Below, piece after piece: positions 3,779 through 19,610 of a DNA stretch of 19,746 bases (within the stretch, counting starts at the first letter, position 1; each line of letters begins with the position of its first letter). The notes below the pieces were generated by a model. It worked only from the letters and a program-made list of their open reading frames with translations, was not told the DNA's origin and ran no database searches. A program made the position numbers and the translations under genes. Origin of the DNA: a virus (Duplodnaviria; Heunggongvirae; Uroviricota; Caudoviricetes); the IMG/VR virus record IMGVR_UViG_2695420847_000002. One strand, written 5' to 3'.

Positions 3779-6700
3779 TCAGCTGATACTGATGCCTGCG
3801 GTGGCTTTCTTCATCACCACAACCAGCAAATCGCTGATACTTGCTGTGGGATACCAGTCATTTACCAGCCATGCTGACACCGAAAACTCCAGCGTCATGT
3901 GGCCGTGACCAGCAGGCATATCAATAACACCACTGTAAATCAGCGTATTATCCAGCGCGGTACGGTTATAAATTTCAGCACCATTTTTCTTCACTATCAG
4001 GCGGCATGAGGAGTAAATATCAGTATGCTCTCTCTCATGTTTAGCACCGCTGAATGCCACCGCCGGAATAACAATCTGCCGGTCAAACGGCTGATCGTCA
4101 TAAATCCTGACGGTAATGGTCCCTGATGGCCACCGCTCCGGTGCCCGGGAGTCCCGCGGGAAAGCCTTACCCACTGTTTTGACAATATCGCCTTCAATCT
4201 GGTTGGCTGACAGTTTCCCTTTAATCTGACAGTTCTCATTTATCGTAACGTTGTTGAGCGTCCCGGAGTTCGCATTCACACTGCCACTGATATCTGCATT
4301 TTTAGCGGTCAGCTTTCCGTCCGGTGTCAGGGAAAATGCAGGAGGATTACCGCCGCTGGTAATGGTGGGAGCCGTCAGATATTTCAGGAACACTTCATTC
4401 ATGAATATCTGATCACCCTGACCAACAAACATCGGTTTTGTGTTGCCATTTGCAGGATTAATCATCGCAATCCTGTCTGCCGCCAGCAGCACCTGACTCT
4501 GCATGCCGTCGGGGGTGTTCTCAATACCGGCACCGATACCCGCGATATAAAGGCGTCCGTCCTGCATCTGCTGCAGCTTCACAGCCCACATGCTGTTCAG
4601 ATTATTATTTGTATCAACCTGAACCTTCTGTATCTGCTGGATCGCTGCACTCTGGTCTTCCAGTTTCTTATTGACGGTCTGTGTGATTTCATTGCTGACA
4701 TCCGTAATGGACGTCCTGATTTCAGCCAGGTCAGGCGCAAGCTGACCGTTATCAATCTGCGTCCACAGCTCCTGAGCCAGATGGGTTTTCCCTATCTCGC
4801 CTTTGAAAAAATCCAGATAGCCGGATGCGTCATCACTCGGCTGACCAACAGCCTCCACGAATGCCGATTTGCCAACGGTGTTCACACTGCGAACGTAAAA
4901 ATAATAATTATGGCCCGGCCTGATATTGATACTGGCGGCTATCCAGTACAGCGCCGTGCCAAGATAGCGTGCTGTGGTTTCAACCTGCCTGATATCCGCA
5001 ATCCGCTTTTCCGAGAACCAGAACTCAAACTGTACCGTCGGATCATAAACCGCAAGATGCGGCGTGGCGGTTATCTGAAAATAGCCCGGCGTCAGCTCAA
5101 TCCGCGACGGCGCTGCCGGTGCGGCAATCCGGAACGATACCGACGCCGGATCGCCCTGCTGCCCCCACGCATTTACTGCCCGGACTGTCAGCCTGTAGTT
5201 CCCCAGAGCCAGTTGTGTGAAGCGGTAAGTGGTTTCCGTCGTCCGGGCCGTGCTGACCAGCCGCTCACTGCCGTCATCCGCTGCCACGGTCAGGCGAAGC
5301 ATGAAACTCACGCCCTTCACCACCTTCGGCGTGTCCCAGCGGGCCAGTACCTGATACTCCCCGCTGTCTGCGGTGACTTCGGCAGTCAGGTGCTGCACTG
5401 CTGGCGGCGTGACACCATTCACCGTGCCGCTCTGGTCGCCGTCAAAGTGCGCCCCGTTATCCACGATGGCTTCTTTTTCCGGTACATGCTGCACGGCGGT
5501 GATGGCATACGTGCCGTCGTCGTTCTCACGGATACTCACGCAGCGGAACAGGCGCTGGCGCAGCGTCGGCAGCTTCAGCCCCCATACGCTGTATCCGGCA
5601 ACGCCGTCAGGAACACGGCTCACTTTTACCTTCACGCCGTCGGTGACGGACTGGACCTCCACGCTGACCGGATTGCCACTTCCGTCAACCAGGCTTATCA
5701 GCGTGGTACCGGAGGATGGCAGCGTGATTTCACGGTCGAGCGTCAGCGTCCGGGTCTGGCTGTTCACCGCCAGCACGCGCCCGCCGGTGCTGATCCCCGC
5801 ATAGTCATCATCGCAGATTTCAATGACATCGCCCGGCACATGGCGAAGCCCTTCCGCACCCACGCTGAAGTCCACGGTCTGCGTTTCCAGTAGTTCCGTT
5901 TTAATCAGCCACAGCCCGGCGCGGTGCGCCTGCCCCCGGCTGGTACAGCCAAAGGCATCCATCTTCGTGACGTTACGACCGTAACGGAGAATGGCCTGCG
6001 TATCTTCAACAAGCTCTGTCGCCGTCTCCCAGCCGTTATCCGGGTCAATCCAGTTCACCTCAACGGCATTATGACGGTCCTTCAGGGCACTGAAGCTGTA
6101 GCGGAACGGCGCGCCATCATCCGGCATCACCACATTACTGCGGTTATAGGTCCACACCTTATCCGACGGTCGGTCCTGCACGAACGTCAGCGTCTGCCCG
6201 TTCCATACCGGCATACAGCGCATCGCCGAGCAGAAATCACTGAGAACATCCCACGCCTTGCGCTGTGTGGTCAGGTAGGCATTACAGGTGATGCGCGGCT
6301 CCGTGCCACCAAAGCCATCCGGCACCGACTGGTCGCAATTCTGGCCGATGACATACAGCGCCCATTTGTCCACATCCGCCGCACCGAGACGCTTCCCCAT
6401 GCCGTAGCGCGGATGGGTCAGCATATCCCACAGACACCAGGCCATGTTGTTGCTGTATGCTGGCTTAAACGTTCCGTCCCAGATACCGCTGTATTGCCGC
6501 GTCTGCGGGTTATAGTTCGACGGCACCTGCAGAATGCGCCCGCGAAGATGATAATTACGGCTCACCTGCTGGCTGCCGAACTGTTCCGAGTCCACCTGCA
6601 CGCCGACCAGTGCCGTGTTCGGGTAGCACTGTTTCACATCGATGATTTCGGTGTATGACGACCAGAGCGTTTTGTTCTGCAGCTGGTCTGTGGTGCTGTC

Positions 6701-7258
6701 CGGCGTCATTCTGCGCATCCGGATATTAAACGGGCGCGGCGGCAGGTTATCCACCACCACCGAGGCCAGATACTGCGAGGTGGTTTTGCCCTTAATGGTG
6801 ATGTCTTTTTCCGTCACCCAGCCACCATTACGCTGTATCTGAACCAGCAGGCGAACTTCCGACGGATTCCGGTCCCCCTTTGAGGTGGTTTCCACCAGTG
6901 CCTGCACACCGAAGGTAAAGCGCAGTCGGTCGATGTTTGCCGACGTGATGGCGCGGGTGATCGGCGTGTCGTATTTCACTTCCGTACCCAACACCGTCTC
7001 GGAGCCGGAGGATTCAAATCCCTCCGGCGGAGTCTGCTCCTGCTCACCAGCCCGGAACACCACCGTGACACCGGCGATGTTGGTATTCCCATCACTGTCC
7101 AGCACCGGCGTACTGTTCAGCAGCACGCTTTTTAATCCATCCATCGGACCTTCAATCGGCCCTTCACTGATGGCATCAATCACACTCAGCAACTGCGTGG
7201 ACTTCAGGTTGTCCTTCGCTTCGCGCGGGGTATGCCCCTTACTGCTTCCTTTACCCAT
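3779..7258 (-). CDS. J: Tail tip central fibre / host specificity protein J
   Basis: Seen: 1159-aa ORF, ATG at 7258..7256. Established (recall): N-terminal ~780 aa are near-identical to lambda gpJ ([38 protein letters not shown]...); the C-terminal part is homologous but diverged. Confidence 0.95.
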
Positions 7259-7280
7259 TCCTCACGCTCCATAAACGACA

Positions 7281-7300
7281 AAACCGCCCGCAGGCGGTTT
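7281..7300 (-). terminator. Stem-loop in the I-J intergenic gap (terminator-like, weak U-tract)
   Basis: Seen: 8-bp stem aaaccgcc / ggcggttt with 4-nt loop; on the minus strand followed by UUUUGUCGUUU, then the J ribosome-binding site GGAG. Function inferred only. Confidence 0.3.
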
Positions 7301-7318
7301 CACATAAAACATTTTGCA

Positions 7319-7960
7319 TCAGCGACCAATCACCACAACCTGACCACCATCCCCTTCGTCTGCCGTGCTGATCTCCTGAGAAACCACGCGTGACCCCACG
7401 CGCATTTCACCGTACAGAACAGGCAGAACATTGCCCTGGGCAACCATGTTATCCAGTGAAGAAAAATAGGTGTTCTGTTTGCCGTTATCCGTTGTCTGTG
7501 TGCGGGGGGTTTTGGGTTTAGGGGCCAGCATCTGTGCAACACCGCCAAGCGTCATACTGGCACCGAGAGAAAACAGCAGATTACTCGCCATAATTCCTAC
7601 CCCCGGCATCCATATAGCAACCGCCATAACAGCCGCCCCCAGCACAGCCTGAAACACACCGCCACTTTTGGCTCCCGCCAGACGCGGCACGATATGGATC
7701 ACAGCACCATTTGCCAGCGGTTCATTAAGACGGGCTGATAATTCCGTTTCACCTGTATCACGCCCGGCAATGCGTACCTGATACCAGCCGTCGCTCAGCT
7801 TCTGACGAAACGCCGGGATCTGCATGGCCAGCGCCCGGATGGCTTCGGCCCCCGTTTTCACACGCAGATCGATGCGGCGGCCAAATCGTTGTAAATCCCC
7901 GTAAAGGCAGATGCGCGCCATGCCCGGTGACGCCAGAGGGAGTGTGTGCGTCGCTGCCAT
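7319..7960 (-). CDS. I: Tail tip assembly protein I
   Basis: Seen: 213-aa ORF, ATG at 7960..7958, overlapping the 3' end of K by ~100 nt. Established (recall): the same K/I overlap exists in lambda; N-terminus MAATHTLPLASPGMARICLYGDLQRFGRRIDLRVKTGAEAIRALA matches lambda gpI. Confidence 0.9.
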   Translation of the reverse strand: MAATHTLPLASPGMARICLYGDLQRFGRRIDLRVKTGAEAIRALAMQIPAFRQKLSDGWYQVRIAGRDTGETELSARLNEPLANGAVIHIVPRLAGAKSGGVFQAVLGAAVMAVAIWMPGVGIMASNLLFSLGASMTLGGVAQMLAPKPKTPRTQTTDNGKQNTYFSSLDNMVAQGNVLPVLYGEMRVGSRVVSQEISTADEGDGGQVVVIGR

Positions 7961-8601
7961 TTGTCGGTATACCTCTCTCGTTTGCTCAGTTGTTCAGGAA
8001 TATGGTGCAGCAGCTCGCCGTCACCACAGTAAATGGCGGCATGATTCGGCACCGATGAACCAAAGCAGCACAGCAGCACATCGCCCGGTTGTGCTGATGA
8101 CAACGGCACCTGATACAGCCCTGTGGCCTCCAGATTATCCAGATAGAGATTCTGACCGTGACGCCACCAGTCATCCCCGCGATGAAAATCCGGCATCTCA
8201 ATTCCCGCCAGATGGTAAGCGTCCCGGAACAGCGTGTAACAGTCCGTCACCCCGTGCTCAAAGCGCCGCCCGGTGAGATGCGGCACACAGCGGAATTTAT
8301 GAATCGCCCCCCGGCAGACCAGCCACCACGGCAAATCACTCTGCACCTGCAGCCGCCGGTCGGCCTCACTCAGCCAGGGCAGACCACCGGGGTGGCTGTG
8401 GACCAGCGCCACAATCTCTCCCTGCATTTCTGCACTCAGCCAGTCCTCCGGCGACATCCGGAAATACTCCTCCGGCTCACCGGATATATTCACGCAGGGA
8501 AAATATCTTTCCCCCTCCGGTGTTCTCACCACGAAGCCGCACGACTCCGCTGGCGCACATCGCCGGGCGTGCGCCAGAATCGCTGATTCTGTCTCTGTCA
8601 T
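7858..8601 (-). CDS. K: Tail tip assembly protein K (MPN/JAMM-like plus NlpC/P60-like domains)
   Basis: Seen: the ORF is open from 8610 (GTG) with the first ATG at 8601..8599, 6 nt after the L stop. It contains HSHPGGLPWLSEAD (HxHx7SxxD) and a downstream Cys/His NlpC/P60-like segment (VTDCYTLF...NHAAIY). Start codon uncertain (8610 GTG, 8601 ATG, or an internal Met). Confidence 0.85.
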   Translation of the reverse strand: MTETESAILAHARRCAPAESCGFVVRTPEGERYFPCVNISGEPEEYFRMSPEDWLSAEMQGEIVALVHSHPGGLPWLSEADRRLQVQSDLPWWLVCRGAIHKFRCVPHLTGRRFEHGVTDCYTLFRDAYHLAGIEMPDFHRGDDWWRHGQNLYLDNLEATGLYQVPLSSAQPGDVLLCCFGSSVPNHAAIYCGDGELLHHIPEQLSKRERYTDKWQRRTHSLWRHRAWRASAFTGIYNDLAAASICV

Positions 8602-8606
8602 GGGAT

Positions 8607-9305
8607 TCACTGCGAAAGTTTGTTAATGGAAAGGAAGCCGCCAAAGTTGCCGACGTTATTGCGAAACTTACAGCCGCTCAGGCATTTGCTGCATTTATCC
8701 TTCGTGATATCGGACGTCGGCTGATCATATTCATCCGCGACCGCCGGACCGTGATAACCGCACTCATCACCGCGATAGGTCCAGGTGCAGGTGTTGGCCA
8801 GCATGATACGTCCCGGAAAAACGGCACCGTCCGTTTCCGTCGGCGTGGACAGTACAAAAGAGGCACTCACCGCGCTCAGTTCACTGCACTGCTCGATGCG
8901 CCAGCGGCTGATCACCTCCTGCTCCGGATCGGCGTCACTGTTTCCGTTGACGAAGTTCACCGCATCCAGAAAACGGGCGTAAACCTTACGCCTGACCACC
9001 GTTCCGCCGACCAGACTCTGCAGGTCTTCCGCCATCCCGGTGACCATGCCGTGCAGGTTAGAGACCGTCAGTGTCGGACGGGCAGCACTGCCCTTACCGT
9101 TCAGTTCAAATCCCGTCCCCTGAATGGGGTATGCCTGATACTGCCGCCCCTGCCAGGTGACCGGCTCACCTTTTTCGTTCTGCTCATTACAGAAAAAATA
9201 ACGTTCACCACCGACCTCTGTCAGATCGATTTCCCAGAGCACCACCTGGGCTGACTGAGTAAGGCGTGTCGTCTCATGATGTGTTTCCTGTGGAATATCC
9301 TGCAT
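8607..9305 (-). CDS. L: Tail tip protein L (C-terminal Cys cluster)
   Basis: Seen: 232-aa ORF, ATG at 9305..9303, ends ...KCSKCLSGCKFRNNVGNFGGFLSINKLSQ. Established (recall): near-identical to lambda gpL, same length. Confidence 0.95.
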   Translation of the reverse strand: MQDIPQETHHETTRLTQSAQVVLWEIDLTEVGGERYFFCNEQNEKGEPVTWQGRQYQAYPIQGTGFELNGKGSAARPTLTVSNLHGMVTGMAEDLQSLVGGTVVRRKVYARFLDAVNFVNGNSDADPEQEVISRWRIEQCSELSAVSASFVLSTPTETDGAVFPGRIMLANTCTWTYRGDECGYHGPAVADEYDQPTSDITKDKCSKCLSGCKFRNNVGNFGGFLSINKLSQ

Positions 9306-9314
9306 CAGGGCCTC

Positions 9315-9644
9315 CTATGCCACGACCTGTTCAAAATCTGCCGTTATGGTTACCCACAGCGCCCCCACGCTTGCCGACCATTTACGACAAACCACCCTGA
9401 TCGGCTTCCAGTCATAAGGTGGCGTCCACTGAAATGCGCGGACGCCACCGTGCCGTTCCAGAAAGGCTTTCAAAGATGGGTGTTCACATTTACGAACACG
9501 TATCGTCACGCTGTAAGTCGACAACTGGTTATTCAGTCCCGCCGCACGACGCTGTTCATAACCATCGCCCAGCTTCACTGTCACCACTTTCGGCTCTGAT
9601 ACCACATTCATATCCGGGCGCACTTTCCAGTGAAACGTCTCCAT
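9315..9644 (-). CDS. M: Tail tip protein M
   Basis: Seen: 109-aa ORF (METFHWKVRPDMNVVSEPK...); its ATG overlaps the H stop as TAATG. Established (recall): same length and sequence as lambda gpM. Confidence 0.95.
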   Translation of the reverse strand: METFHWKVRPDMNVVSEPKVVTVKLGDGYEQRRAAGLNNQLSTYSVTIRVRKCEHPSLKAFLERHGGVRAFQWTPPYDWKPIRVVCRKWSASVGALWVTITADFEQVVA

Positions 9645-12600
9645 TACCGATATGCTCCACTTAACCGACCACCATCACGGGCCTGCTGTTGCATAAAGTC
9701 CGCTGCCGCTTTTTTCCCAAGGTCATAAACCACCTTCAGGGCAGCCGGACCTATCTGCCCGTTCGTGCCATCGTTATTGATCTCGATGTTGTACTGCGGG
9801 GCAAACATCGCCATACCTGAACCACCAATATCCGCCACAACCCCCAGCTTACCATCAGCACCACGACGCAGTGGCAGAATGGCTTCAGGTCCAGCTTCCC
9901 CCATCACACCCGCGCCTTTTGCAAAAGCAAAAAACGTCGGACGGTTAACCACCGTGCCACTGTAGCGACTCAAATCAGCCGACTGATAAACACCGCCATC
10001 AGCATTGGCTACAAAATCAAAAGGCAGCGCGGAAGCAATACCTTTTACCGCTTTCATTAAAGCTATCTGAGCCATGATTCTGGACATATCTGACAGCACA
10101 GAAGAGGTGAAGGATTTGAAATTGAGTTTGCCTGTAGTACAGAATGTCGCCAGCCAGTCACTCATGCTACTGAACGCAGACGTGAACAACTGTTCCACTG
10201 TCCCGGCTGTGTTATCCGCTTTCTCAGTGACATTCTGGAGTGCACGCAGGACTCCGTTTTTCCAGTCACCCTGAGCAATTTCAAGCTGTTGCCAATAACG
10301 GCGATTCTCATTCAGTTGTCGGTTCAGGCTCTCCGTCAGCGCCTGCTCGGCCTTTCTGTAGTCATCCGTGTTATATGTTCCTTTCTGCTCACTATCCCGC
10401 CTCAACTGCTCCAGCTGTTGCTGGTATTTCTGGCGAAGACTCAGTTGTACCTGATATCGCTGCCGCTGCTGATCACCCATACCCACCGTGGCGATATCCA
10501 GGTCATGTTGCTGGCGCTGAGCGCGCTCTTCTTCAGCCAGTTGACTGGTCAGCTGAATTGTTTTTTTCTTCAGATCGTTGAGTGCCGTCTGTTTCTGAAG
10601 CTCCTGCTGTTTTACATCCAGCAGCGTCAGTGCCTGAATCAGTTCATCTTTACGGGCCAGCACACTCTTTTCATCTGCCGTCAGTTTTTTCCCGTCCAGA
10701 TCGCTGATGCGCTGCTGCAGAGCCAGAAGCTGTTTATGCGCTTCTGTCATCCTGTCAGTGGCAATGCCTGCTGACTGTCTTGCAGCAGCAATCTGTCCTT
10801 CCACCTGTGCCTGTTGCTGACTGTACTGCAGCAATAACCGGGTGGCCTCATCATTACGGGTTTCGCGTGTTTTTTTCTTACCGGATGCCAGGACTTTCTC
10901 GTAACGTTCATTTTCACGTTGTATCGCCGCATCCCTGACAGCCTGATCGGCGTACTGCATGGCATTAATACGCGCAATTTCACGCTGATGTCGTGCTGCT
11001 TCCGTTTCATTCATCCGGTTCAGTGCAGCATTTTCAGCATTACGGCGTTTCTGTTGCTCCTGATAATTCCGCTCTGCCTGCTCTTTTGCATCCTGCAAAT
11101 CCTTCTGGCGTTTTTTCTCCTGAAGCTCGTTAAGACGCTGCTGATCGTACTCAACCTGAGAAGATGATGCCGTCCAAGGGAGTCTTTTCGCCCGCGACAC
11201 TTTCTCCTGTAAAGCGGAAATCTGTTCATCCAGCGAGTCTTCACGACCAATATTCATGGCCGCATCCCAGAAACGACTCCATAAATCAGACAGATACTTC
11301 AGCGTACTGCCCAGCGCATTGAGGTTATTATCAATATCCGCAGTACGCCGACCGGTTTCCTCTGCCAGTGCAGACATGGCTATCCGTGCCGCATCACTGG
11401 ACCGCCCCTGTTCCCCAAGGACGCGTATCTGCTCAAGCTGAGTGGCAGTAAGAAAATGCAGCTCATTGTCCAGAGCCTTCGCGGCATTTACAGGATCATC
11501 CTTCAGCCGCTTAAACTGATTTATGGTATCGCTGACCGACTGGCCAACCGATCGCTCCATCTGTGCGGCAGCTCTCGCCACCATACCGATATCGTTTCCA
11601 CGAAATGCACCACTCCCCACCACCTGAGCCAGCGCACCGGCTGCAGCATGTTGCGTGATACCATTCCCGGAAATAGCACGACTGAGCGTCCACAGCTGCC
11701 CGGCAGTGACTCCGGCATAATGCCCCGTCAGCGACAGCTGGCGGTTAAATTCTTCCCCCTCCTTCTGACCGTCATACCAGGCTTTACCCAGACCATAGAC
11801 AGCCGCGGCAATACCGCCAATAACCCCGCCAAGCATCATGCCTTTCGGTGACATCAATGTGTCTATCCATCCGGCACGGTTAGCCAGCGTTATTCCGGAT
11901 CCCCTCAGCGCACCTAAATTGCCGCGGGCCAGTTCACCTATCAGAACGCCTATCTCCTGACGGGCCGCTGCACTTTTCAGACCCAGCGAATGCGTTGCTT
12001 TTCCTGCCTGCTCCATTTTGCGGATATACACTTCTGCAGCACTGCTTACCCCCAGCTGGGCAGCCTTAGCACGAAGCAACTCAGAAGAAGAAAGATTCTG
12101 GCGGGTTGCCTGCTCTTTAAGCTGACGGATAAACGCCACTTTCTGTCGGGTAGCCTCTTCCTCAGCCTGTGTAAGAACACGGGTTTTCGCCGTAACCTCA
12201 GAAATCAGCGCCAGATAATCCTGCTGACCAATCCCGCCACTGTTTCTGGCCTGTCGGATCTGCTGCTGAATACGCTGTAATTCCTGCAGCCCCGCACTGG
12301 CCTGTTTCACACTGTCAATCTGACGATAAAACGCGGCAGCCGCTTTATCCTGAGCCTCCGCCAGAGCCATGGCCTGCGCCTGTTCCTCGCGCATTTTCTG
12401 GCTCAGTGCCTCCATACGCTGGCGGGTTTGCTCCACCTCGCGGGCCATGCGTTCATGAGCCTGTGCGCTCTTCTCCACCGTCTGCGCATGGACGGATGCG
12501 GCTGTTGCAGCCGAAGAAGCCGCCTGCATTGTCTGCCGGGCGGCCTGAGTCTGACGCTCCATAAAACGCTGCATACGGGCAGAAGACCGTTCTGCATCGC

Positions 12601-12700
12601 TGGCTGCACCATTCAGAAGGTTTTTGATACGGGGAATTTCATTTTTAAACTCTGCCGCATCAATCCCCAAATCAATGACCAGGTTGGCTATCTGGTCCAT
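9644..12700 (-). CDS. H: Tail tape measure protein H
   Basis: Seen: ORF is open to a TTG at 12730, but the ATG at 12700..12698 is preceded by GGAGGTG at good spacing, giving 1018 aa. Long central coiled-coil (Gln/Ala/Arg/Glu-rich). C-terminus NNDGTNGQIGPAALKVVYDLGKK...DGGRLSGAYR matches the lambda gpH C-terminus from recall. Position between T and M. Confidence 0.9.
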   Translation of the reverse strand: MDQIANLVIDLGIDAAEFKNEIPRIKNLLNGAASDAERSSARMQRFMERQTQAARQTMQAASSAATAASVHAQTVEKSAQAHERMAREVEQTRQRMEALSQKMREEQAQAMALAEAQDKAAAAFYRQIDSVKQASAGLQELQRIQQQIRQARNSGGIGQQDYLALISEVTAKTRVLTQAEEEATRQKVAFIRQLKEQATRQNLSSSELLRAKAAQLGVSSAAEVYIRKMEQAGKATHSLGLKSAAARQEIGVLIGELARGNLGALRGSGITLANRAGWIDTLMSPKGMMLGGVIGGIAAAVYGLGKAWYDGQKEGEEFNRQLSLTGHYAGVTAGQLWTLSRAISGNGITQHAAAGALAQVVGSGAFRGNDIGMVARAAAQMERSVGQSVSDTINQFKRLKDDPVNAAKALDNELHFLTATQLEQIRVLGEQGRSSDAARIAMSALAEETGRRTADIDNNLNALGSTLKYLSDLWSRFWDAAMNIGREDSLDEQISALQEKVSRAKRLPWTASSSQVEYDQQRLNELQEKKRQKDLQDAKEQAERNYQEQQKRRNAENAALNRMNETEAARHQREIARINAMQYADQAVRDAAIQRENERYEKVLASGKKKTRETRNDEATRLLLQYSQQQAQVEGQIAAARQSAGIATDRMTEAHKQLLALQQRISDLDGKKLTADEKSVLARKDELIQALTLLDVKQQELQKQTALNDLKKKTIQLTSQLAEEERAQRQQHDLDIATVGMGDQQRQRYQVQLSLRQKYQQQLEQLRRDSEQKGTYNTDDYRKAEQALTESLNRQLNENRRYWQQLEIAQGDWKNGVLRALQNVTEKADNTAGTVEQLFTSAFSSMSDWLATFCTTGKLNFKSFTSSVLSDMSRIMAQIALMKAVKGIASALPFDFVANADGGVYQSADLSRYSGTVVNRPTFFAFAKGAGVMGEAGPEAILPLRRGADGKLGVVADIGGSGMAMFAPQYNIEINNDGTNGQIGPAALKVVYDLGKKAAADFMQQQARDGGRLSGAYR

Positions 12701-13022
12701 AACGCACACCTCCGGAAATACCTTCCCCAAGATGCATCAGTTCTTCGTCCGTTCGCTCCGGTATCCCGTTCTCTTCCGGTAAAAGGCTGAAATCAGCCAC
12801 CGCAGCATCACTGCTACCGGACACCATTCTCACGATCAATGCCTTCAGCGAGGCAAACTGCGCATCCATCCACACATCACTGAAGCTCTGCATCCGGAAA
12901 TAATCGCCCCATTCACCAAGCTCAGTGGCCGACATTTCCGACAGCATCCGCCGCCAGTCTGCCCGCCGGAACTCCCGGGCAAGCCGCATGACAAACTGCA
13001 TTTCCCGCGTCAGGACTTTTCC
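12672..13022 (-). CDS. T: gpT segment of the G-T tail assembly chaperone, read in the -1 frame relative to G (programmed frameshift)
   Basis: Seen: the -1 frame is open from a stop at 13037..13035 through to 12672 and overlaps the last codons of G. It has no plausible independent ribosome-binding site. Established: the G/G-T arrangement is conserved upstream of tape measure genes in long-tailed phages. The frameshift is inferred, not demonstrated. Confidence 0.7.
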   Translation of the reverse strand, partial: GKVLTREMQFVMRLAREFRRADWRRMLSEMSATELGEWGDYFRMQSFSDVWMDAQFASLKALIVRMVSGSSDAAVADFSLLPEENGIPERTDEELMHLGEGISGGVRYGPDSQPGH

Positions 13023-13399
13023 GGCGTCAGCACCTCATGCTCCAAATCCCCGGCATTCTCAATGGCTCCCATACCGCTCAGCGACAGAACCATCTCCGCC
13101 CCCGCTCCCAGGGCATCATACGACCATGTTGTAATAACGGATGCGCAAAGCGTCTCAACATCCTGAGACTGTTCCGCATTCCACAGTGAGCGGGAAACCA
13201 GCCAGGCATTGATATCCATCCCCATCCGCAGAAAAGCAATCTGTCGTTCAGCCTCCGGCAGTTCTCCCTCCCCGGCATCAAACTTTGCCGTTCGCTGCTG
13301 AACAAACGCCAGATATTCAATTCTCTGCAGCCCGGACAGCTCACTGAGCACCACGGACTGCTTTTCATAATTAAACGTGCCCTGTTTCAGAAACATCAT
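13010..13399 (-). CDS. G: Tail assembly chaperone G
   Basis: Seen: ATG ATG at 13399..13394 preceded by AGGTGGAG; the longer ORF in the track (13438) would start inside the upstream terminator hairpin. The motif ...VVLSELSGLQRIEYLAFV... resembles lambda gpG (recall). Stop TGA at 13012..13010. Confidence 0.85.
   Translation of the reverse strand: MMFLKQGTFNYEKQSVVLSELSGLQRIEYLAFVQQRTAKFDAGEGELPEAERQIAFLRMGMDINAWLVSRSLWNAEQSQDVETLCASVITTWSYDALGAGAEMVLSLSGMGAIENAGDLEHEVLTPEKS
13016..13022 (-). other. Candidate -1 frameshift slip site GGAAAAG at the end of G
   Basis: Seen: minus-strand ...CCG GAA AAG TCC TGA in the G frame; the heptamer G GAA AAG lies inside the 22-nt window where both G and T frames are open. 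Established (recall): the lambda site is G GGA AAG. Assignment by inference only. Confidence 0.35.
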
Positions 13400-13412
13400 G
13401 TTCTCCACCTGC

Positions 13413-13436
13413 AAAAAAGCCCCGGATAACCGGGGC
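13413..13436 (-). terminator. Rho-independent terminator between V and G
   Basis: Seen: stem gccccgg / ccggggc (13419-13425 / 13430-13436), loop ataa, followed on the minus strand by T6 (A-run 13413-13418 on plus), then the G ribosome-binding site. Confidence 0.55.
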
Positions 13437-13456
13437 AAATGATGAGTATCGTCCTG

Positions 13457-14200
13457 TTAACCTGCGGCGCTGACAGCCACCGCAGCCACTGCCACAAAAT
13501 CGCCGTCAGAAGTCATGCCCACAATGCTGACACTGCCCTGCTTCACGCCTTTCACCGTGGCCACAAGCCCGTTCAGGGTCACCGTGGCAGTCTGTGGATC
13601 TGTCGAATGCACACTGATCGCTTTGTCACTGGCTCCGTCAGGTTTTACTGTAAAGGTCAGCGTGGTGGTTGCTCCCACTTTTACACTGGCAGATGCCGGT
13701 GCCACCGTCAGCCCGGTAACGCTCACTGTTTCAGTGCCTTCCTCTGCCAGATACGGACGCCCCACACCGCTGATTTTCACTGTGCGGGTCATCACGTCTT
13801 TTGAGGCAATGGTTTTACCCAGTGAGCTCAGCCAGCCACGGAAAACATCAACAGTGCCGTTGGGATATTTGATACGAAACGCGCAGACTTCACCGGAGTC
13901 GAACAACTGAACCAGTTTTTTCTGCCCGCTGTCACCCGGACGCCAGGCCAGCGTCGCCGAAGTATCACCGACGGATTTCTGCCCCTGGGTTGTCGTTTTC
14001 CAGTCTGCATCTTCATCATCGAGATAAGTGTCATCTTCTGCATCAGCGGTCATTTCGCCAGGTTGCAGATCCTTCACCATCGCAAGACGCAGCCAGTCAG
14101 TGTCCGATAAAGGGTTCGCAAACGCATCGCCCTTGCCGGTGTACATCCAGAACGTCGTTCCCGCACCTTTCGTTTTTGCCAGTGGATTTGGTGTGGTCAT
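13457..14200 (-). CDS. V: Major tail protein V with a C-terminal Ig-like domain
   Basis: Seen: ATG at 14200..14198 preceded by AAGGAGGTG (the track ORF starts at an upstream GTG, 14206). ...KTKGAGTTFWMYTGKGDAFANPLSDTDW...YLDDEDADW...YPNGTVDVFRGW... closely resembles lambda gpV (recall). Confidence 0.95.
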   Translation of the reverse strand: MTTPNPLAKTKGAGTTFWMYTGKGDAFANPLSDTDWLRLAMVKDLQPGEMTADAEDDTYLDDEDADWKTTTQGQKSVGDTSATLAWRPGDSGQKKLVQLFDSGEVCAFRIKYPNGTVDVFRGWLSSLGKTIASKDVMTRTVKISGVGRPYLAEEGTETVSVTGLTVAPASASVKVGATTTLTFTVKPDGASDKAISVHSTDPQTATVTLNGLVATVKGVKQGSVSIVGMTSDGDFVAVAAVAVSAAG

Positions 14201-14211
14201 TGCCACCTCCT

Positions 14212-14613
14212 TTAATTCGTGTACGTGATCTGGTACGTGATTTCCGCCATCGCCCAGGTGGCCATCTCATTATCACGTTGATAGTTAAAACCGAGAGGGA
14301 TCAGGGTGTCGATGAGTCCGGAAAGTGCCGGTATATCATTCAGAGCCGGGAAAATGGTGCTCTCCATCCACATATCCAGCTCTGAATCCGGTGCCTGTGC
14401 CCGGATGAAGACAGCAATATGCAGAACAGCCTGCCAGTCATCTTCATCCGTCATTTTTCCGGTGTACTGAGCATCACTCAGCCACACCGCCACGGCATGC
14501 AGTTCCTGCGCATCAATAAATGCCGGAAGCCCGTCAAAAAACGTGGCGCTGTCTCCACACTGTTCCCGAAGGCGTGCCAGTACGGCCTGGCGGATTTGTG
14601 TATGTCGGTTCAT
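14212..14613 (-). CDS. U: Tail terminator protein U
   Basis: Seen: ATG at 14613..14611 overlaps the Z stop as ATGA; an alternative upstream ATG is at 14625. ...ATFFDGLPAFIDAQELHAVAVWL...WMESTIFPALNDIPALSGLI...ITYQITYTN resembles lambda gpU (recall). Confidence 0.85.
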   Translation of the reverse strand: MNRHTQIRQAVLARLREQCGDSATFFDGLPAFIDAQELHAVAVWLSDAQYTGKMTDEDDWQAVLHIAVFIRAQAPDSELDMWMESTIFPALNDIPALSGLIDTLIPLGFNYQRDNEMATWAMAEITYQITYTN

Positions 14614-15188
14614 CGGGTCAGCCATAACCTCAGTTGTTGTTTCAGTGCATACCCCAGCTGTTTCGGCATTTCCGCAGCAATAATGCGGTCGCGGGCATCT
14701 TCAAATGCCTGTGTCAGCGGTCCGGACAGCGGGACTTTCACCACATCAATGGGGTAACGATTTTTGCCATCAATACGCCGCATCACATGCCAGCGACCAT
14801 TCGCCAGTTGCTGAATAAACGCATCCCGGAAAAGATATTTACCCACCTTCAGCACACTGCCACGGTACTGCAGTTTTCCACCACGCCGGGCCAGTCTGAC
14901 CCGGGCTGTCCCCAGCTTAATAGCGGGCAGATTGCCCCGGTTAACGCGGATCCTGGCCGTCATTTTTCCTGACGGACTGGCTTTAAACACCCGGACACGC
15001 TGACGTACCAGTTTCAGGGGGATCCCTCTCACCTGGTTATCTCCCGCAACGGTATTCCCGGCAACCTGCCGGGTGGCGACCGAGACCGCTTTCTGTGCCA
15101 CACGATTTATCGCCCATGCGCTGGCCTGTGGCACCATACGGGTATCAAGGCTGTTCAGATTACGGATGGCATTCTCAAGCCCCTTCAT
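14610..15188 (-). CDS. Z: Tail completion protein Z
   Basis: Seen: 192-aa ORF, ATG at 15188..15186 preceded by AGAGGTG. Assigned by synteny (between FII-like and U) and by length equal to lambda gpZ (recall). Confidence 0.8.
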   Translation of the reverse strand: MKGLENAIRNLNSLDTRMVPQASAWAINRVAQKAVSVATRQVAGNTVAGDNQVRGIPLKLVRQRVRVFKASPSGKMTARIRVNRGNLPAIKLGTARVRLARRGGKLQYRGSVLKVGKYLFRDAFIQQLANGRWHVMRRIDGKNRYPIDVVKVPLSGPLTQAFEDARDRIIAAEMPKQLGYALKQQLRLWLTR

Positions 15189-15199
15189 CCCACACCTCT

Positions 15200-15475
15200 T
15201 TACTCAATAAAGATCATTGGCTTACCGTTAAAACGTTCATGCCGTGTGACCGTCCATTGTTGTCCGTCATAAACAACGCGATCCCCGCGCCGTGGGCGGT
15301 ATCCCGAAGAAAACACCACCAGAGAGACCGCAGGTCCGGACAGAGCATTCAGCTCTGCCAGTGTTTCTCCCGGGATCACAGTCATATCGGCATCATTAAT
15401 CGAGGCTGTCTTTCCCATCTTTCTGACCGTGATCGCATCCATACGCGCTGCCAGCCTGGAAAAGGGATCAGACAT
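15200..15475 (-). CDS. Head-tail connector protein at the lambda FII position (FII-like)
   Basis: Seen: 91-aa ORF; its ATG at 15475..15473 overlaps the stop of the upstream gene by 8 nt (ATGTCTGA), so it is probably translationally coupled. Assigned mainly by synteny; sequence similarity to lambda FII not verified. Confidence 0.6.
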   Translation of the reverse strand: MSDPFSRLAARMDAITVRKMGKTASINDADMTVIPGETLAELNALSGPAVSLVVFSSGYRPRRGDRVVYDGQQWTVTRHERFNGKPMIFIE

Positions 15476-15791
15476 TGAGTTTTACCGGCACTTCTTCTGC
15501 ACTGGTTCCGGCATCTGCCCAGACAACCCCGACCAGCGGATCAGAGCCGCTGTTAGTCAGCTGAACTTTTCCGGACTTCAGATAAACCTTCTTACCCGTT
15601 TTCATATCATCCGTTTTCAGCTTAGGCAGCATAAACACACCTTCGGTCATGCCGTCGCCTGTTTCACCCTGTGGAATATCGGTCAGCGCCACCGCAAAAA
15701 TATTACCCACCTGCACCAGATCTCCGCTGCTGATGGCTGCACTGGCAACAATCGCCACCGTTTTTCCTTCTTCTACAAAATTCTTTGCCAT
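15468..15791 (-). CDS. Small DUF2190-like protein of unknown function at the position of lambda FI (possible capsid accessory/decoration protein)
   Basis: Seen: ATG at 15791..15789 preceded by CGGAGA; the track ORF starts at an upstream TTG (15836) inside the terminator. MAKNFVEEGKTVAIVASAAISSGDLVQVGNIFAVALTDIPQGETGDGMTEGVFMLPKLK... fits my recollection of the DUF2190 family found next to HK97-type capsid genes. Not verified by search. Confidence 0.5.
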   Translation of the reverse strand: MAKNFVEEGKTVAIVASAAISSGDLVQVGNIFAVALTDIPQGETGDGMTEGVFMLPKLKTDDMKTGKKVYLKSGKVQLTNSGSDPLVGVVWADAGTSAEEVPVKLNV

Positions 15792-15834
15792 AACTGTCTC
15801 CGCACAGCCCCGTTCAGGGGCTGATTTCAGGTAC

Positions 15835-15853
15835 AAAAAAAGCCCTTACGGGC
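15835..15853 (-). terminator. Weak rho-independent terminator just downstream of the capsid gene
   Basis: Seen: 4-bp GC stem gccc / gggc (loop ttac) followed on the minus strand by T7 (A-run 15835-15841 on plus). A second 6-bp hairpin (agcccc / ggggct, 15806-15822) lies between it and the next ribosome-binding site. Short stem, so low confidence. Confidence 0.4.
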
Positions 15854-15877
15854 CATCAGAGTTGTTGTCTGCGACGT

Positions 15878-17836
15878 TTACGCCGTACATTTCACCAGAC
15901 CGCGGTGATCAACTGGCGCGACACCGGCGTCAATACGCACTTTCGTTGTCACGCCATCCACACTGAAGCCCTCCATCTGATCAATATATGGCGTATCCAC
16001 ACCGTTGAGATAAGCCACTTCAATCGTATCGGAGCCTTTTGACGCAGCCAGGTAGAAGGTGGTCTGGCTGTTATCATCAAGACGAGGCTCTGCAATAACG
16101 GTCGCAAAATCTTTCACCGGGTTAATAATACCGGCGTTAATGTCAGCCCCCTTGACACTTGAGGAGCGAATGACCTGGTTAGCAACAGACTCCATCGCCG
16201 TCGGTACCAGTACGAACGCAGGACGAATATTCAGATGACGCTCCCCCTCTTTCTGAACGCGCATCAACTGGCGGGCTTTATCCAGCGATGCCACGTCCAT
16301 TGCAGCGCTCTCCAGTACGTTTGCATGTTTCGCTTTATCGAACAGACTTACATTATCTGTGGAGATTTTCGGGTTAGACGTCAGAATGGCATAAACCAGA
16401 TCGGCAATAGTGGATTTCGCCGCACGGCCCAGTTTCATCGGGACATCGGTCAGCATATTCAGATCATCATTGATAATGGCCTGACGGGTGATACTGAACA
16501 GCTCGCCATAGGTCGCCAGTGCAATAGTGGCCTGTTTATCTCCGGTGGTGACGTATTTATATTCCGCCCCTTCACGCACCTGACGCAGAGCACTGAAGCC
16601 CCCCATACCCACACGATGGGCAATTTTAAAATCAGACAACTGACCTTTCCGCGTCCACTGTTCATAGGTTTCAGGGGCATCTTCCCAGCCCTGCAGAATG
16701 GCTTTGTTCGCAACATCCAGCAGAATATTACCGAAGTCAGACGTACTGTGTGTGAACGCCGCACCGACCATCTGCATCGGGTTATAACTGGAAACCCCAA
16801 TACCCCGTTCAGTCAGTGACATACGGGCATATTCACGCAGGGTCATCCCGTTGTAGACATTATCACGTTCGGTTTTTTCAAATCCGGCACGCGCCATCAG
16901 CGCCTGGCGGATCCCGTCCCCCACAAAATTACCGTTACCGGCATAAATATGAGCCGGGGTATTTTTATTGGATGGCGTGGACTCGCGCCCCATCTCGTTC
17001 AACAGCTTTTCGCGGGCCTGCTCCAGCGAACATTCAGGATCGGCAAGACACTGAGCCTGCAGCGTCTGATAACGCCCGCCAAACATGGCAAACAGATCAT
17101 TAATACCGTTTACACGCGCTTTTTGCTCTGCCAGTACCTGCGCACGGATACTGTTTTCATCCACCACGGGTGCTGCTGCCTGCACTGGCGTCCGGGAGGC
17201 TGCAGGTTCATTATCCTGTACGCGTGGAGCACTGTTGCGTGGCGGAGTAATCATGTTTCGAATGGATTCCGGCATCTTTGTAAATTCCTCTGTACGTTTT
17301 GACTGAATACATGCCATTGCCTTAACGGCTGGCGTCACCTGATCAGCAAATCCATGTGCCAGACATTCGGCACCGGACATCCAGGTCTCATCCGCCAGCA
17401 TGGCAGCAATTTCATCGGTGGTTTTCCCGGTTTTCTGTGCATAAGCGGGTAACAGAACCGCCTCAACCTTATCGAGCAGGTCGGCATAGGTGCGCATGTC
17501 CTCCGCATCACCGCCCGTAAAGCCAAATGGTTTATGAATCATCATGAAGGTGTTTTCCGGCATAATGACCGGGTTTCCCACCATCGCAATGATCGACGCC
17601 ATTGACGCCGCCACACCGTCGACATAAACGGTAATGGACGCACCATGTGTTTTCAGCGCATTAAAAATGGCGATGCCTTCAAAGACATCGCCACCCGGTG
17701 AATTGATATGGAGATTAATGTGGGTGATATCGCCCAGTGCATTCAGATCACTGATAAACTGCTTCGCTGTAACACCCCAGAAACCAATCTCGTCATAAAT
17801 ATAAATATCCGCGTCACTCTGGTGACCAGCCTGCAT
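15878..17836 (-). CDS. Fusion protein: ClpP-like (S14) prohead protease, Ala/Gln-rich scaffold-like linker, HK97-fold major capsid protein
   Basis: Seen: one uninterrupted ORF. Start placed at ATG 17836..17834, 14 nt after the portal stop (MQAGHQSDADIYIYDEIG...); the track extension to 18097 would overlap the portal by ~250 nt. ClpP-like motifs IYIYDEIG, GVAASMAS and MIHKP in the first ~200 aa; C-terminal ~330 aa capsid-like. 652 aa from this start. Confidence 0.85.
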   Translation of the reverse strand: MQAGHQSDADIYIYDEIGFWGVTAKQFISDLNALGDITHINLHINSPGGDVFEGIAIFNALKTHGASITVYVDGVAASMASIIAMVGNPVIMPENTFMMIHKPFGFTGGDAEDMRTYADLLDKVEAVLLPAYAQKTGKTTDEIAAMLADETWMSGAECLAHGFADQVTPAVKAMACIQSKRTEEFTKMPESIRNMITPPRNSAPRVQDNEPAASRTPVQAAAPVVDENSIRAQVLAEQKARVNGINDLFAMFGGRYQTLQAQCLADPECSLEQAREKLLNEMGRESTPSNKNTPAHIYAGNGNFVGDGIRQALMARAGFEKTERDNVYNGMTLREYARMSLTERGIGVSSYNPMQMVGAAFTHSTSDFGNILLDVANKAILQGWEDAPETYEQWTRKGQLSDFKIAHRVGMGGFSALRQVREGAEYKYVTTGDKQATIALATYGELFSITRQAIINDDLNMLTDVPMKLGRAAKSTIADLVYAILTSNPKISTDNVSLFDKAKHANVLESAAMDVASLDKARQLMRVQKEGERHLNIRPAFVLVPTAMESVANQVIRSSSVKGADINAGIINPVKDFATVIAEPRLDDNSQTTFYLAASKGSDTIEVAYLNGVDTPYIDQMEGFSVDGVTTKVRIDAGVAPVDHRGLVKCTA

Positions 17837-17849
17837 CCTGAACCAGGAA

Positions 17850-19358
17850 TTATTCTTCGGACTGGTCGTCGGTGTGCTGCGGCTCCTGTCGTTTCGTTGC
17901 GGCACTGCTGCCTCCTTTATCACTGGCCGGATCGGTATCAAATACCAGATCCAGCTTGCGGTTTTCATCAATTTCGGCCTTGCGCCGACGTTTGACATCA
18001 TCCGGATTACGACCACCTGCACGTACCCAGTCTGATTCTGTCGCTGCTCCACCACGAATCTGAATTTTCCAGGCCTCAGCCTCCTTAACAGGGTCAATCC
18101 ACGGCATCACCGGTCCGGAGTACACCGCGGTATACAGTGAAGAACGGTCAAGATCGCGGGGTAGCCTGATAACACTGGATGCCACAGCCTGTTTCAGCCA
18201 GGCACGATACATCGGGCGGGTGACAGCACCAATAAACCAGTCCTGCAGGATCAGGTAGCCATCAGTGGATTCAACCAGCTCCTGACGCTGGGCGCTGTAA
18301 GTGCCGTTATAGTTGCGCGCTGTACTGGAAAAACTCAGACGACTGCCCGCCGCCACGGCACGCAACTGACCATTACGAAAAGTTTCAAGGTTAGGATTGG
18401 GGCGATCCGACTTCACCATTCCGATTTCTTCGCCGGGTTTCAGATCGTCGTAAATAATGCCTGGCTGAATGGTAAGCTCGCGTTCCTTATCCTTGCTGCC
18501 ATTACCATCCGGTTCATAGCTCTGCCCGTCGCCTTTGCGGATGTACATCCCCAGAGCAGCGGCGATCCTTGCTGCAGTCAGCTCATAATCTTCATAATCT
18601 TTCAGGGCACTGAGGCGGATCAGCACACCGGACAACAAAGACGTCCCGCGCATCTGGTGCAGACGGCGAACAAATTTAAGATGCAGCATTCGCTCTGCAT
18701 CCACTTCTTTGGTTTCCATCTGCCGTCCGGATACGGGACGGCTTTTATACACCAGATATTTTTCGGGACGCCCCCAGTCATCAACAAACACGCCCTGATT
18801 CAGCCTGTTGCTCTCATCACTGGTCATGGGAATAAAGTCTGGCTCGAGCGCCTCCAGCCAGAAATGAACACCGGCAGAAGGCGTCAGGCTGTTTATGCGC
18901 CCGGAAACCATCTGGGCAAACACCTCACCATCGCGCAGCCAGGTACGCAGCATCAGACGTTCCAGCATCGGACGGGTAAACTGCCCGGTGACTTCCGGGC
19001 TGACAGACCATTCACTCCATCGGGTGCGAATCTCCGCTGCCAGATCACGGGCAATGGCCCCATTGCGTAATACCGGATGTGGCTCGACAATAATCCCGTT
19101 TTTCCCCACCACCCGTTCTTCCAGCTTGTCAAATACACCAATAACCAGATCGTGGTTGTTATCAAGGTAACGGGCCTGCTCACGTAACGACACGGCCCCG
19201 TACTGGCTTAGCTGGTCGGCAGTTCGGTTCTCCCGTCGGGCTTTGTGTGTCCGCGTCGTTTTTACGGCTTCATAAGCCTGGATCACCGCACGGGAACGCA
19301 GCCTTGCCGCTTTCCATCCAGGTGAAAAAACGCCAATCACATCATCAAGAATTGCCAT
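17850..19358 (-). CDS. B: Portal protein, lambda gpB family
   Basis: Seen: ATG at 19358..19356 preceded by GAGG and overlapping the W stop as ATGA; the track extension to GTG 19430 is rejected. C-terminus ...RKLDLVFDTDPASDKG...EPQHTDDQSEE resembles the lambda gpB C-terminus (recall). Confidence 0.9.
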   Translation of the reverse strand: MAILDDVIGVFSPGWKAARLRSRAVIQAYEAVKTTRTHKARRENRTADQLSQYGAVSLREQARYLDNNHDLVIGVFDKLEERVVGKNGIIVEPHPVLRNGAIARDLAAEIRTRWSEWSVSPEVTGQFTRPMLERLMLRTWLRDGEVFAQMVSGRINSLTPSAGVHFWLEALEPDFIPMTSDESNRLNQGVFVDDWGRPEKYLVYKSRPVSGRQMETKEVDAERMLHLKFVRRLHQMRGTSLLSGVLIRLSALKDYEDYELTAARIAAALGMYIRKGDGQSYEPDGNGSKDKERELTIQPGIIYDDLKPGEEIGMVKSDRPNPNLETFRNGQLRAVAAGSRLSFSSTARNYNGTYSAQRQELVESTDGYLILQDWFIGAVTRPMYRAWLKQAVASSVIRLPRDLDRSSLYTAVYSGPVMPWIDPVKEAEAWKIQIRGGAATESDWVRAGGRNPDDVKRRRKAEIDENRKLDLVFDTDPASDKGGSSAATKRQEPQHTDDQSEE

Positions 19359-19570
19359 CAGAACCTCGCCAGCCGGTACCCAGGATGCCCCCGTCGTCGT
19401 GTAATCAGAGCCGCAAGGCGGCGCTCCCACTCCTGCCGTCCCTGCCGGATCTCAGATAAGTTTTCCATGGTCATCTGCTGACCATTAAAGGTGACGGATT
19501 TTCCGTCCAGCACCGCCATTTCAGCTTCCATATAACGCTGAATCATGGCTTCGATATCATTCTGGTTCAT
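19358..19570 (-). CDS. W: Head completion / head-tail joining protein W-like
   Basis: Seen: ~70-aa ORF ending ...ITRRRGHPGYRLARF, similar to the lambda gpW C-terminus (recall). GGAGG abuts the first ATG (19576), so the second ATG (19570) is the more likely start. Confidence 0.8.
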   Translation of the reverse strand: MNQNDIEAMIQRYMEAEMAVLDGKSVTFNGQQMTMENLSEIRQGRQEWERRLAALITRRRGHPGYRLARF

Positions 19571-19610
19571 AACCATCCTCCGGAAGTCAGCCAGGGGTTA
19601 ACATCGTCAG

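Follow-up and report, generated by a model that had tools for sequence, protein, structure and literature searches.

In phages HK97 and T5 a scaffold domain is fused to the N-terminus of the capsid protein (PMC10275583), and fusions of protease, scaffold and capsid have been described in actinobacteriophages, where several small phages (Microbacterium cluster EE, Arthrobacter cluster AN and others) use one gene for a protease, a scaffold and an HK97-like capsid protein (PMC7302621, PMC5513430). The stretch analysed here, 19,746 nt of the Caudoviricetes record IMGVR_UViG_2695420847_000002 from IMG/VR (the window), carries on its minus strand a gene of comparable make-up, in which a ClpP-like protease, a linker, scaffold-like helices and a major capsid protein follow one another in a single reading frame. 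The actinobacteriophage fusions are found in other hosts and belong to other sequence families, and are likened to the window gene by description. The fusion gene and its identification are already known; the only possibly new element might be the proposal that it contains a second, internal start.

Several head systems use nested designs that keep the protease substoichiometric, among them lambda C/Nu3, Mu I/Z and herpesvirus UL26/UL26.5. The herpesvirus genes UL26 (protease-scaffold) and UL26.5 (scaffold) are nested in frame: the protease is delivered by a long form present in small amounts, and the plentiful short form has none. There, nesting is achieved by a separate transcript and the capsid protein is the product of a separate gene, whereas in the window both products would contain the capsid protein and the shorter one would arise by translation starting within the ORF. 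The lambda annotation has Nu3 made from an internal in-frame start of C, a precedent for the nested start proposed below. Like the window gene, lambda C is located after the portal gene in the operon, and it begins at a GTG that follows GAGGAGG inside the 3′ end of the portal gene B, much as the window gene has a GTG at 17905. However, the window protease is of the S14 rather than the S49 type, its capsid protein belongs to a different Pfam family and is fused rather than separate, and its decoration gene lies after the capsid gene, where that of lambda lies before it.

The reading frame is open from stop to stop over 15878..18097 on the minus strand, with no internal stop, and the stop codon of the fusion gene is at 15880-15878. 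Its parts are listed here; residue numbers are those of the 652 amino acid (aa) translation from the ATG at 17836, unless the 675-aa protein is named.

15878..17905, minus strand: full coding sequence of the fusion (ClpP-like protease, linker, scaffold-like helices, major capsid protein), from NF045540 and the start given by the Prokaryotic Genome Annotation Pipeline (PGAP)
17911..17917, minus strand: Shine–Dalgarno sequence AAGGAGG for the GTG at 17905, within the 3′ end of the portal gene, read from the sequence
17834..17836, minus strand: ATG taken as the start in an earlier note, probably an internal Met (residue 24 of the 675-aa protein), with no good Shine–Dalgarno sequence upstream
17327..17836, minus strand: ClpP/S14-like protease domain, aa 1–170 (Pfam CLP_protease, NF045542, Foldseek)
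17605-17603, minus strand: codon of Ser78 (ClpP alignment)
17536-17534, minus strand: codon of His101 (ClpP alignment)
17389-17387, minus strand: codon of Glu150 (ClpP alignment)
17286..17290, minus strand: internal Shine–Dalgarno-like GAGGA, 10 nt upstream of the Met188 codon (alignment of homologues)
17273..17275, minus strand: invariant internal ATG, Met188 (Met211 in the 675-aa protein), found in 63/63 homologues
17159..17314, minus strand: disordered Pro/Ala-rich linker, aa 175–226, variable in length and sequence in the alignments (predicted local distance difference test score, pLDDT, 30–50)
16982..17158, minus strand: scaffold-like (delta-like) helical segment, aa 227–285 (AlphaFold2)
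16934..16981, minus strand: flexible junction, aa 286–301, STPSNKNTPAHIYAGN (pLDDT <50)
15881..16933, minus strand: HK97-fold major capsid protein domain, aa 302–652 (Pfam, AlphaFold2, Foldseek)

The earlier note, made from the sequence alone, described an open reading frame (ORF) of about 650 codons beginning 14 nt after the portal stop. The ORF itself stands: translation from the ATG at 17836, the start used in the GenBank records of mEp460 and cdtI, gives 652 aa, and this ATG is the 14th base past the portal stop because a 13-nt gap separates it from the portal TAA at 17852-17850. Its start was probably placed 69 nt too far downstream. The true start is probably the in-frame GTG at 17905, which has the sequence AAGGAGG upstream at a spacing of 5 nt and adds 23 aa, for a protein of 675 aa (73.5 kDa). 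PGAP annotates the start exactly at this GTG, and the window protein is 99.6 % identical to the PGAP-annotated locus over residues 1–675. Homologous ORFs (63, at 52–100 % identity) keep the residues N-S-W-[FY]-x-[MI]-[QK]-A, which in the window are encoded upstream of the Met at 17836. A Shine–Dalgarno sequence and start codon lie upstream of the NSW[FY] residues in 45 of the 63, typically 15–40 codons before the conserved Trp, and a GTG or ATG start preceded by AAAGGAG(G) is kept in most homologues. In 28 of the 63 the codon that matches the ATG at 17836 is a non-start codon (ATC, ATT, ATA, CTC or TTT). With the GTG as start, the gene overlaps the 3′ end of the portal gene by 56 nt.

A second, putative initiation signal lies at the junction of the protease and the rest of the protein. 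Met188-Pro189 is invariant in all 63 homologues, within a linker that is otherwise variable. Of 64 ORF sequences, 61 have the upstream AGGA in register, and in the other three (loci L076, L083 and L088) a GAGGA or AGGAG is shifted by about one codon. The residue at the codon that supplies the ‘AG’ varies between E, Q and K; the codons used are GAG (43), CAG (9) and AAG (9), never GAA, CAA or AAA, whereas over the whole ORF in the same set GAA is used 1349 times and GAG 1030 times. G occupies the third position of this column in 62/62 sequences (100 %), compared with 25–78 % in the other 18 of 19 columns dominated by E, K or Q. Additionally, among 12 conserved Met or start-codon columns only that of Met188 has a Shine–Dalgarno-like motif at −17 to −5; every sequence has it there (100 %), whereas the background rate is 5.4 % of codon positions. 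The simplest reading is that Met188 marks a functional internal initiation site, and a start there is predicted to give a linker-scaffold-capsid product of 465 aa (50.7 kDa).

The same arrangement recurs in more distant phages. An in-frame ATG with AGGA or AGGAG 6–10 nt upstream is located at the protease/linker junction of Pseudomonas phage F10 (aa 220; ClpP type), of Rhodobacter phage RcKemmy (aa 215; N-terminus of the Pfam Peptidase_S78 type) and of Stenotrophomonas phage S1 (aa 207, again ‘MP’; N-terminal part without a Pfam protease match). The presence of the junctional ATG and Shine–Dalgarno sequence in the non-ClpP relatives RcKemmy and S1 suggests a general rule for protease-capsid fusion genes, namely that such fusions may have arisen when reading of a protease gene continued into a gp5-like scaffold-capsid gene whose own start was retained. 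A limited search found no annotation or paper that states a nested start or such a rule.

The motifs from which the protease had first been recognized (IYIYDEIG, GVAASMAS and MIHKP) are all present in the translation, and its assignment to the ClpP/S14 type is borne out by profile and structure comparisons. Pfam CLP_protease (PF00574) matches aa 23–168 (6.9e-36, 124.3 bits, cutoff 20.2), and NF045542, ‘head maturation protease, ClpP-related’, is matched at 214.7 against a cutoff of 120. AlphaFold2 predicts a confident protease domain at aa 1–170, and the N-terminal domain superposes on ClpP structures in Foldseek (E 2e-13, template modelling score TMt 0.72–0.80). In phmmer alignments to solved ClpP structures, Ser78 (in GVAASMAS) falls on the ClpP active-site Ser of G-x-AASM and His101 (in MIHKP) on the His of the ClpP motif MIHQP; both residues are invariant in 63/63 homologous ORFs, and the SPGG motif of the oxyanion region is invariant or nearly so. 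Glu150 occupies the position of the ClpP Asp (Asp171 in Escherichia coli ClpP) and is E in 61/63 homologues and D in 1/63, while the neighbouring Asp149 is variable. All equivalog and subfamily models of cellular ClpP score far below their cutoffs (TIGR00493, 59.9 vs 308.6). Thus the domain has the ClpP fold but is no cellular ClpP orthologue.

The rest of the three-part layout given in the earlier note, a scaffold-like linker and an HK97-fold capsid part, is likewise accurate by Pfam, AlphaFold2 and Foldseek. In the full-length AlphaFold2 model, built from 38 homologues, helices are placed at residues 227–250, 257–265 and 271–284 (pLDDT 76–86), and the fusion-family model NF045541 aligns from aa 199 to the end. 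By analogy with the delta domains of HK97 and T5, aa 227–285 may serve as the scaffold. The junction that follows reads ...TPS...H-I-Y-A-G-N-G-N-x-V-G-D; P288 does not vary among the homologues, and N301, G302, N303 and D307 come close to invariance. This flexible stretch, aa 286–301, is a candidate region for maturation cleavage, and a cut here would leave a capsid domain of about 38 kDa. Pfam Phage_capsid_4 (PF25209) matches aa 355–649 (2e-54, 186 bits, cutoff 27), with a weaker match to Mu-like_gpT (3.8e-08) in the capsid part. Since the full-length model gave only ClpP matches in Foldseek, the capsid part was modelled separately (aa 286–652; pLDDT 82, predicted template modelling score 0.79); this model matched encapsulins, SU10, D3, SaPI1, T5 pb8 and HK97 prohead I (8fqk) at probability 1.00 and E 4e-8 to 5e-6. 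A PDB sequence search with the capsid part gave only weak matches, all of them Mu-gpT-like (E 2e-4).

HK97 gp4/gp5 and T5 pb11/pb8 resemble the window gene in having an HK97-fold capsid protein and an N-terminal helical scaffold on one chain, and the layout of HK97 gp5 is the same as that of the predicted 465-aa short product. In these systems, as proposed for the window, the helical segment is presumably removed by a phage serine protease within the procapsid. In contrast to HK97, the window protease is in frame on the same ORF and is of the ClpP (S14) type, where that of HK97 is of the herpesvirus-like S78 type, and the window protein has a shorter helical segment, of about 60 aa, preceded by 50 aa of disordered linker.

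These comparisons are consistent with a dual-start protease-scaffold-capsid gene whose products co-assemble and are then processed inside the shell, a model that we consider fairly probable. The gene would be read from two in-frame starts, the GTG at 17905 giving the 675-aa protease-scaffold-capsid chain and the ATG at 17275 giving the 465-aa scaffold-capsid chain, laid out like HK97 gp5 with its delta domain and capsid protein. Both chains would co-assemble into a procapsid around the portal through their HK97-fold domains, with the helices of aa 227–285 acting like the delta domain of HK97 and T5 (PMC10275583), and the long chain would bring the protease inside the shell. Once the procapsid is assembled, this protease would cut the flexible junction near aa 286–301 and degrade everything N-terminal to the cut. 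A shell protein of about 38–40 kDa would remain and expand, and would then be bound and stabilized by the cement protein encoded downstream. The steps of co-assembly, cleavage and maturation are modelled on HK97, lambda C/Nu3, Mu I/Z and herpesvirus UL26/UL26.5. With a confidence a little better than even, we take the fusion gene to be a nested pair in which the 465-aa scaffold and capsid product is made beside the 675-aa chain, and in which the ratio of the two initiation sites would set the protease dosage per procapsid. If this internal start is real, it explains how these phages avoid having a protease on each of about 415 subunits, and it offers a simple, testable model of how protease-capsid fusions evolve and are dosed.

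A number of observations weigh against this dual-start model. The internal Shine–Dalgarno sequence is only GAGGA, at a rather long spacing of 10 nt and inside a translated ORF; its conserved AGGA could reflect another RNA-level role; Shewanella phage 1/44, one of the four distant relatives checked, has only an ambiguous GGGGA; and the third catalytic position of the protease is Glu instead of Asp. The nested gene is annotated in no database record examined. The 63 homologues are phylogenetically related, so the counts overstate their independence, although despite this kinship synonymous sites should be saturated at 52–60 % amino-acid identity. Additionally, both products, the protease activity and the cleavage site are deduced from sequence comparison and structure prediction. 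The earlier note supposed instead a single polyprotein, with the protease built into every procapsid subunit and removed by autoproteolysis. On that reading all subunits would be full-length, about 415 protease copies per procapsid would remove themselves, and Met188 and the AGGA would serve some other end, for instance as a motif for cleavage or structure, or to make translation pause between the domains. The one uninterrupted ORF is conserved, its upstream start has the stronger Shine–Dalgarno sequence (AAGGAGG, 5-nt spacer), and the silence of the records on a nested gene also fits this alternative. It is physically possible as well, since by our own rough estimate 415 N-terminal parts of 35 kDa would fill about one-third of the interior of a lambda-sized procapsid. 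However, it leaves the internal signal unexplained: an invariant ATG at constant spacing from an AGGA fixed at synonymous sites is the signature of an initiation site, unique among the 12 conserved Met codons, and it recurs at the junction with another protease family. Moreover, the known nested pairs show that phages generally keep the protease substoichiometric. We therefore regard a single polyprotein as rather unlikely, and the idea of a protease on every subunit is weakened by the conserved Shine–Dalgarno sequence and ATG at Met188, which predict a scaffold and capsid product without the protease; if that nested 465-aa product is real, the protease need not be carried on each subunit.

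Two further explanations would alter the reading of the gene as a whole. In one, the ClpP-like domain is degenerate and non-catalytic, an addition to the scaffold only, and maturation is left to a protease of the host or another protease of the phage. The Glu at the third triad position and the low scores against cellular ClpP equivalogs would agree with this, but Ser78, His101 and SPGG are conserved as described above, the head maturation protease model NF045542 is passed and the head module has no other protease gene, which together make a dead protease very improbable. In the other, the fusion is an artefact or pseudogene, two genes having been joined here by a lost stop or a frameshift error. 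Some relatives do show damage of this kind, with a frameshift at L008 and an in-frame stop at L002, and many database proteins are listed as ‘partial’. Against it, the ORF is intact at ≥80 % coverage in 2017 E. coli genomes and in the viable isolated phages mEp460, cdtI, Ayreon, Tritos, Gifsy-2 and F10, contrary to any stop or frameshift between the halves in independent sequences. Lists of homologous proteins held no full-length members (>581 aa), so fused and split states were counted on genomic-contig loci instead: 80 loci at 52–100 % identity, with each gammaproteobacterial species represented by a single genome (Enterobacterales, Pasteurellaceae, Pseudomonas, Shewanella and Ferrimonas, among others). 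A single uninterrupted ORF spans both domains in about 75 of the 80, and the exceptions are contig ends or truncations; the fusion is therefore a conserved, selected state. No convincing functional split relative was found among the apparent stand-alone capsid or protease genes examined. Apparent splits proved to be genes cut by contig ends (P0044 at L005-7, P0094 at L003 and P0154 at L012-13), a gene frameshifted within a decayed prophage that has a fragmented terminase as well (P0110 at L008), a gene broken by one in-frame stop (P0111 at L002) and a gene with fragmented capsid genes downstream (P0166 at L011). An artefact or pseudogene is thus already refuted, and we leave it a negligible probability.

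Some of the homologues are located in small islands beside genes of primase/helicase type (L012, 4001-4927; L011, 4001-5802; L002, 4200-6272). The neighbouring genes are D5_N/DUF5906/Pox_D5 or Toprim_3/DUF3987, with DUF1441 also at L011, and no tail genes are present within the flanks of the three islands. These look like capsid-forming satellites, similar to capsid-forming phage-inducible chromosomal islands (cf-PICI), rather than full prophages. In the L002 island the protease and capsid parts are parted by the single in-frame stop. A metagenomic contig, L004, has two copies of the gene about 2 kb apart, at 990-2930 and 5001-6668. The one is an intact fusion of 646 aa, 53 % identical to the window protein, amid small genes; the other has 555 aa, is N-terminally truncated and 69 % identical, and has cement, Gifsy-2-family, Z, U and V genes after it. 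This double copy could be an insertion or rearrangement in a prophage head gene, or an assembly chimera.

The window gene is a typical member of a catalogued NCBIfam family, NF045540, ‘ClpP-like prohead protease/major capsid protein fusion protein’. Residues 9–651 match this profile over positions 2–651 of 652, at 984.1 bits against a cutoff of 475, and PHROG 133 matches the protein over its full length. The gene is 99.0–99.7 % identical at the DNA level to its counterparts in PhiR55_1, mEp460, phi458, Tritos, cdtI, HannyBb and Ayreon, and about 77 % identical to those of the long-tailed Stx2 phages and CP-1639. Of 5426 complete E. coli genomes in RefSeq, 2125 (~39 %) have it, mostly at ≥99 % identity, and PGAP names it there by the NF045540 name. 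A protein-level search of phage records found relatives in 131, among them Gifsy-2, mEp043, VT1-Sakai, Hafnia and Pasteurella phages, Shewanella 1/44 and Stenotrophomonas S1. The records of Pseudomonas phages F10 and MD8 read ‘protease and major capsid protein’ and that of a Rhodobacter phage reads ‘major capsid and protease fusion protein’. The family is thus common and widespread in lambdoid and other prophages of Gammaproteobacteria. The earlier expectation that similar fusions occur in some enterobacterial prophages is confirmed by the E. coli genomes, mEp460, cdtI and Gifsy-2, and the judgement ‘probably unusual rather than new’ was right in direction, with the fusion in fact being common and having an NCBIfam model of its own.

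Members of NF045540 (mEp460 gp5, cdtI gp5, the Gifsy-2 ‘Clp protease involved in capsid processing’ and F10 gp5) share the three-part architecture of the window gene, as well as its neighbours, a portal gene upstream and cement and Gifsy-2-family head-tail protein genes downstream. The window copy shows no substantial difference from them. A literature search found no experimental work on this enterobacterial family, its cleavage site or an internal start; a preprint on cyclic-oligonucleotide-based antiphage signalling systems (CBASS), a cf-PICI preprint and papers on DLP4 and ANT_H14 were not relevant to the fusion gene.

Gene labels in the phage records conflict, and include ‘head-tail preconnector protein Nu3’, ‘preconnector protease C’, ‘major capsid protein’, ‘terminase protein’, ‘hypothetical protein’ and ‘putative protease/scaffold protein’. 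PGAP and the GenBank submitters use two different starts for the fusion gene, and the length of the portal also differs by record (491 aa in PGAP NZ_CP116913, 502 aa in mEp460). The inconsistent names and the two start codons give the present assignment practical value for annotation. The only genomic-contig match at 100 % identity is L014 (JAEWTL010000010.1, 19905 bp), from a metagenome-assembled genome labelled ‘Bacillota bacterium’. Its sequence is otherwise >99 % identical to E. coli prophages, and it is most likely a mis-binned enterobacterial prophage contig.

A second fusion family, NF045541 (‘prohead protease/major capsid protein fusion protein’), has a homologous scaffold and Phage_capsid_4 part, and the window protein falls below its cutoff (400 vs 525). 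RcKemmy gp9 (locus L095, 754-2802) and Stenotrophomonas S1 gp8 (locus L096, 802-2784) are 31–36 % identical to the window protein by tblastn, and their N-terminal domains are not ClpP-like: that of RcKemmy is a Peptidase_S78 and that of S1 has no Pfam protease match. The S1 record names gp8 ‘major head and protease protein’, and the protease label comes from that record alone. As judged by these alignments, RcKemmy and S1 would represent an in-place swap of protease type within the fusion gene.

The immediate neighbours of the fusion gene are as follows.

19358-19576, minus strand: 72-aa gene upstream of the portal, hypothetical in the databases
17850..19358, minus strand: portal gene of the lambda portal family (Pfam Phage_portal_2, 8.4e-82; extent from the mEp460 annotation)
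15834..15854, minus strand: hairpin resembling an intrinsic terminator, GGCCC-GUAA-GGGCU followed by U7 (terminator scan, RNA fold)
15468..15791, minus strand: head decoration (cement) gene, directly downstream (Pfam Phage_cement_2, 4.3e-21; PHROG 122 ‘head decoration’, 2.8e-47)

The hairpin is located 24 nt past the capsid stop and before the decoration gene, at a site where mEp460 has an annotated Rho-independent terminator. It is no more stable than shuffled sequences (z = −0.4), and its designation draws on the hairpin shape together with the run of U and the terminator annotated in mEp460. Such a terminator may raise the amount of capsid mRNA relative to the downstream genes.

The genes of the window follow an order like that of lambda, from the portal through the head genes and an FII-like gene to Z, U, V, G, T, H, M, L, K, I, J, lom and stf. 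Within this late operon the fusion replaces the separate lambda products C, Nu3, D and E, as had been proposed. The head proteins belong to S14-like, Phage_capsid_4 and Phage_cement_2 families, and no tblastn match to lambda C, Nu3, D, E, FI or FII was found in the window at E≤1e-3. The FII position is held by a Gifsy-2-family protein. The 72-aa gene upstream of the portal gave no gpW match and only a sub-threshold match to DUF6148 (20.9 bits, cutoff 27). By tblastn, protein identity to lambda is 21 % for the portal (B), 50–55 % for Z, U and V, 32–38 % for G and T, 25 % for H, 56 % for M and 80–96 % for L, K, I and J. At the DNA level, window 4762-9782 is 89 % identical to lambda 12965-18002, covering the end of H and then M, L, K, I and J. 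Close likeness is confined to this segment and parts of the fibre region, with 66 % over V-U-Z and none in the head region.

Given this graded similarity, it is the entire head end that is remote from lambda, and not the shell genes alone. The earlier note placed a mosaic joint at the head shell, between a lambda-like W and portal on one side and FII-Z-U-V on the other. The non-lambda lineage of the shell stands; its lambda-like flanks do not, with a portal at 21 % identity, an unrecognizable gpW, a replaced FII, and Z, U and V at only 50–55 %. From the same comparisons the entire head module is of a different lineage, of the Gifsy-2/mEp460 type. A sharp and recent recombination boundary with a lambda-like phage is placed near 9782, in the 3′ end of the tape-measure gene, and not at the head-shell genes.

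Homologues of the tail chaperone genes G and T are found at 12672-13438 on the minus strand in the usual overlapping arrangement. The slippery heptamer of lambda, GGGAAAG, is absent from the G/T junction of the window, and the frameshift site, if any, must therefore differ. Outside the lambdoid setting, a Pseudomonas contig (L003, 1-6325) has a capsid gene 56 % identical to that of the window, followed by Phage_attach and by the P2-type baseplate genes Phage_base_V, GPW_gp25, Baseplate_J and Tail_P2_I. This head module is thus also found joined to contractile-tail modules, which supports reassortment between heads and tails.

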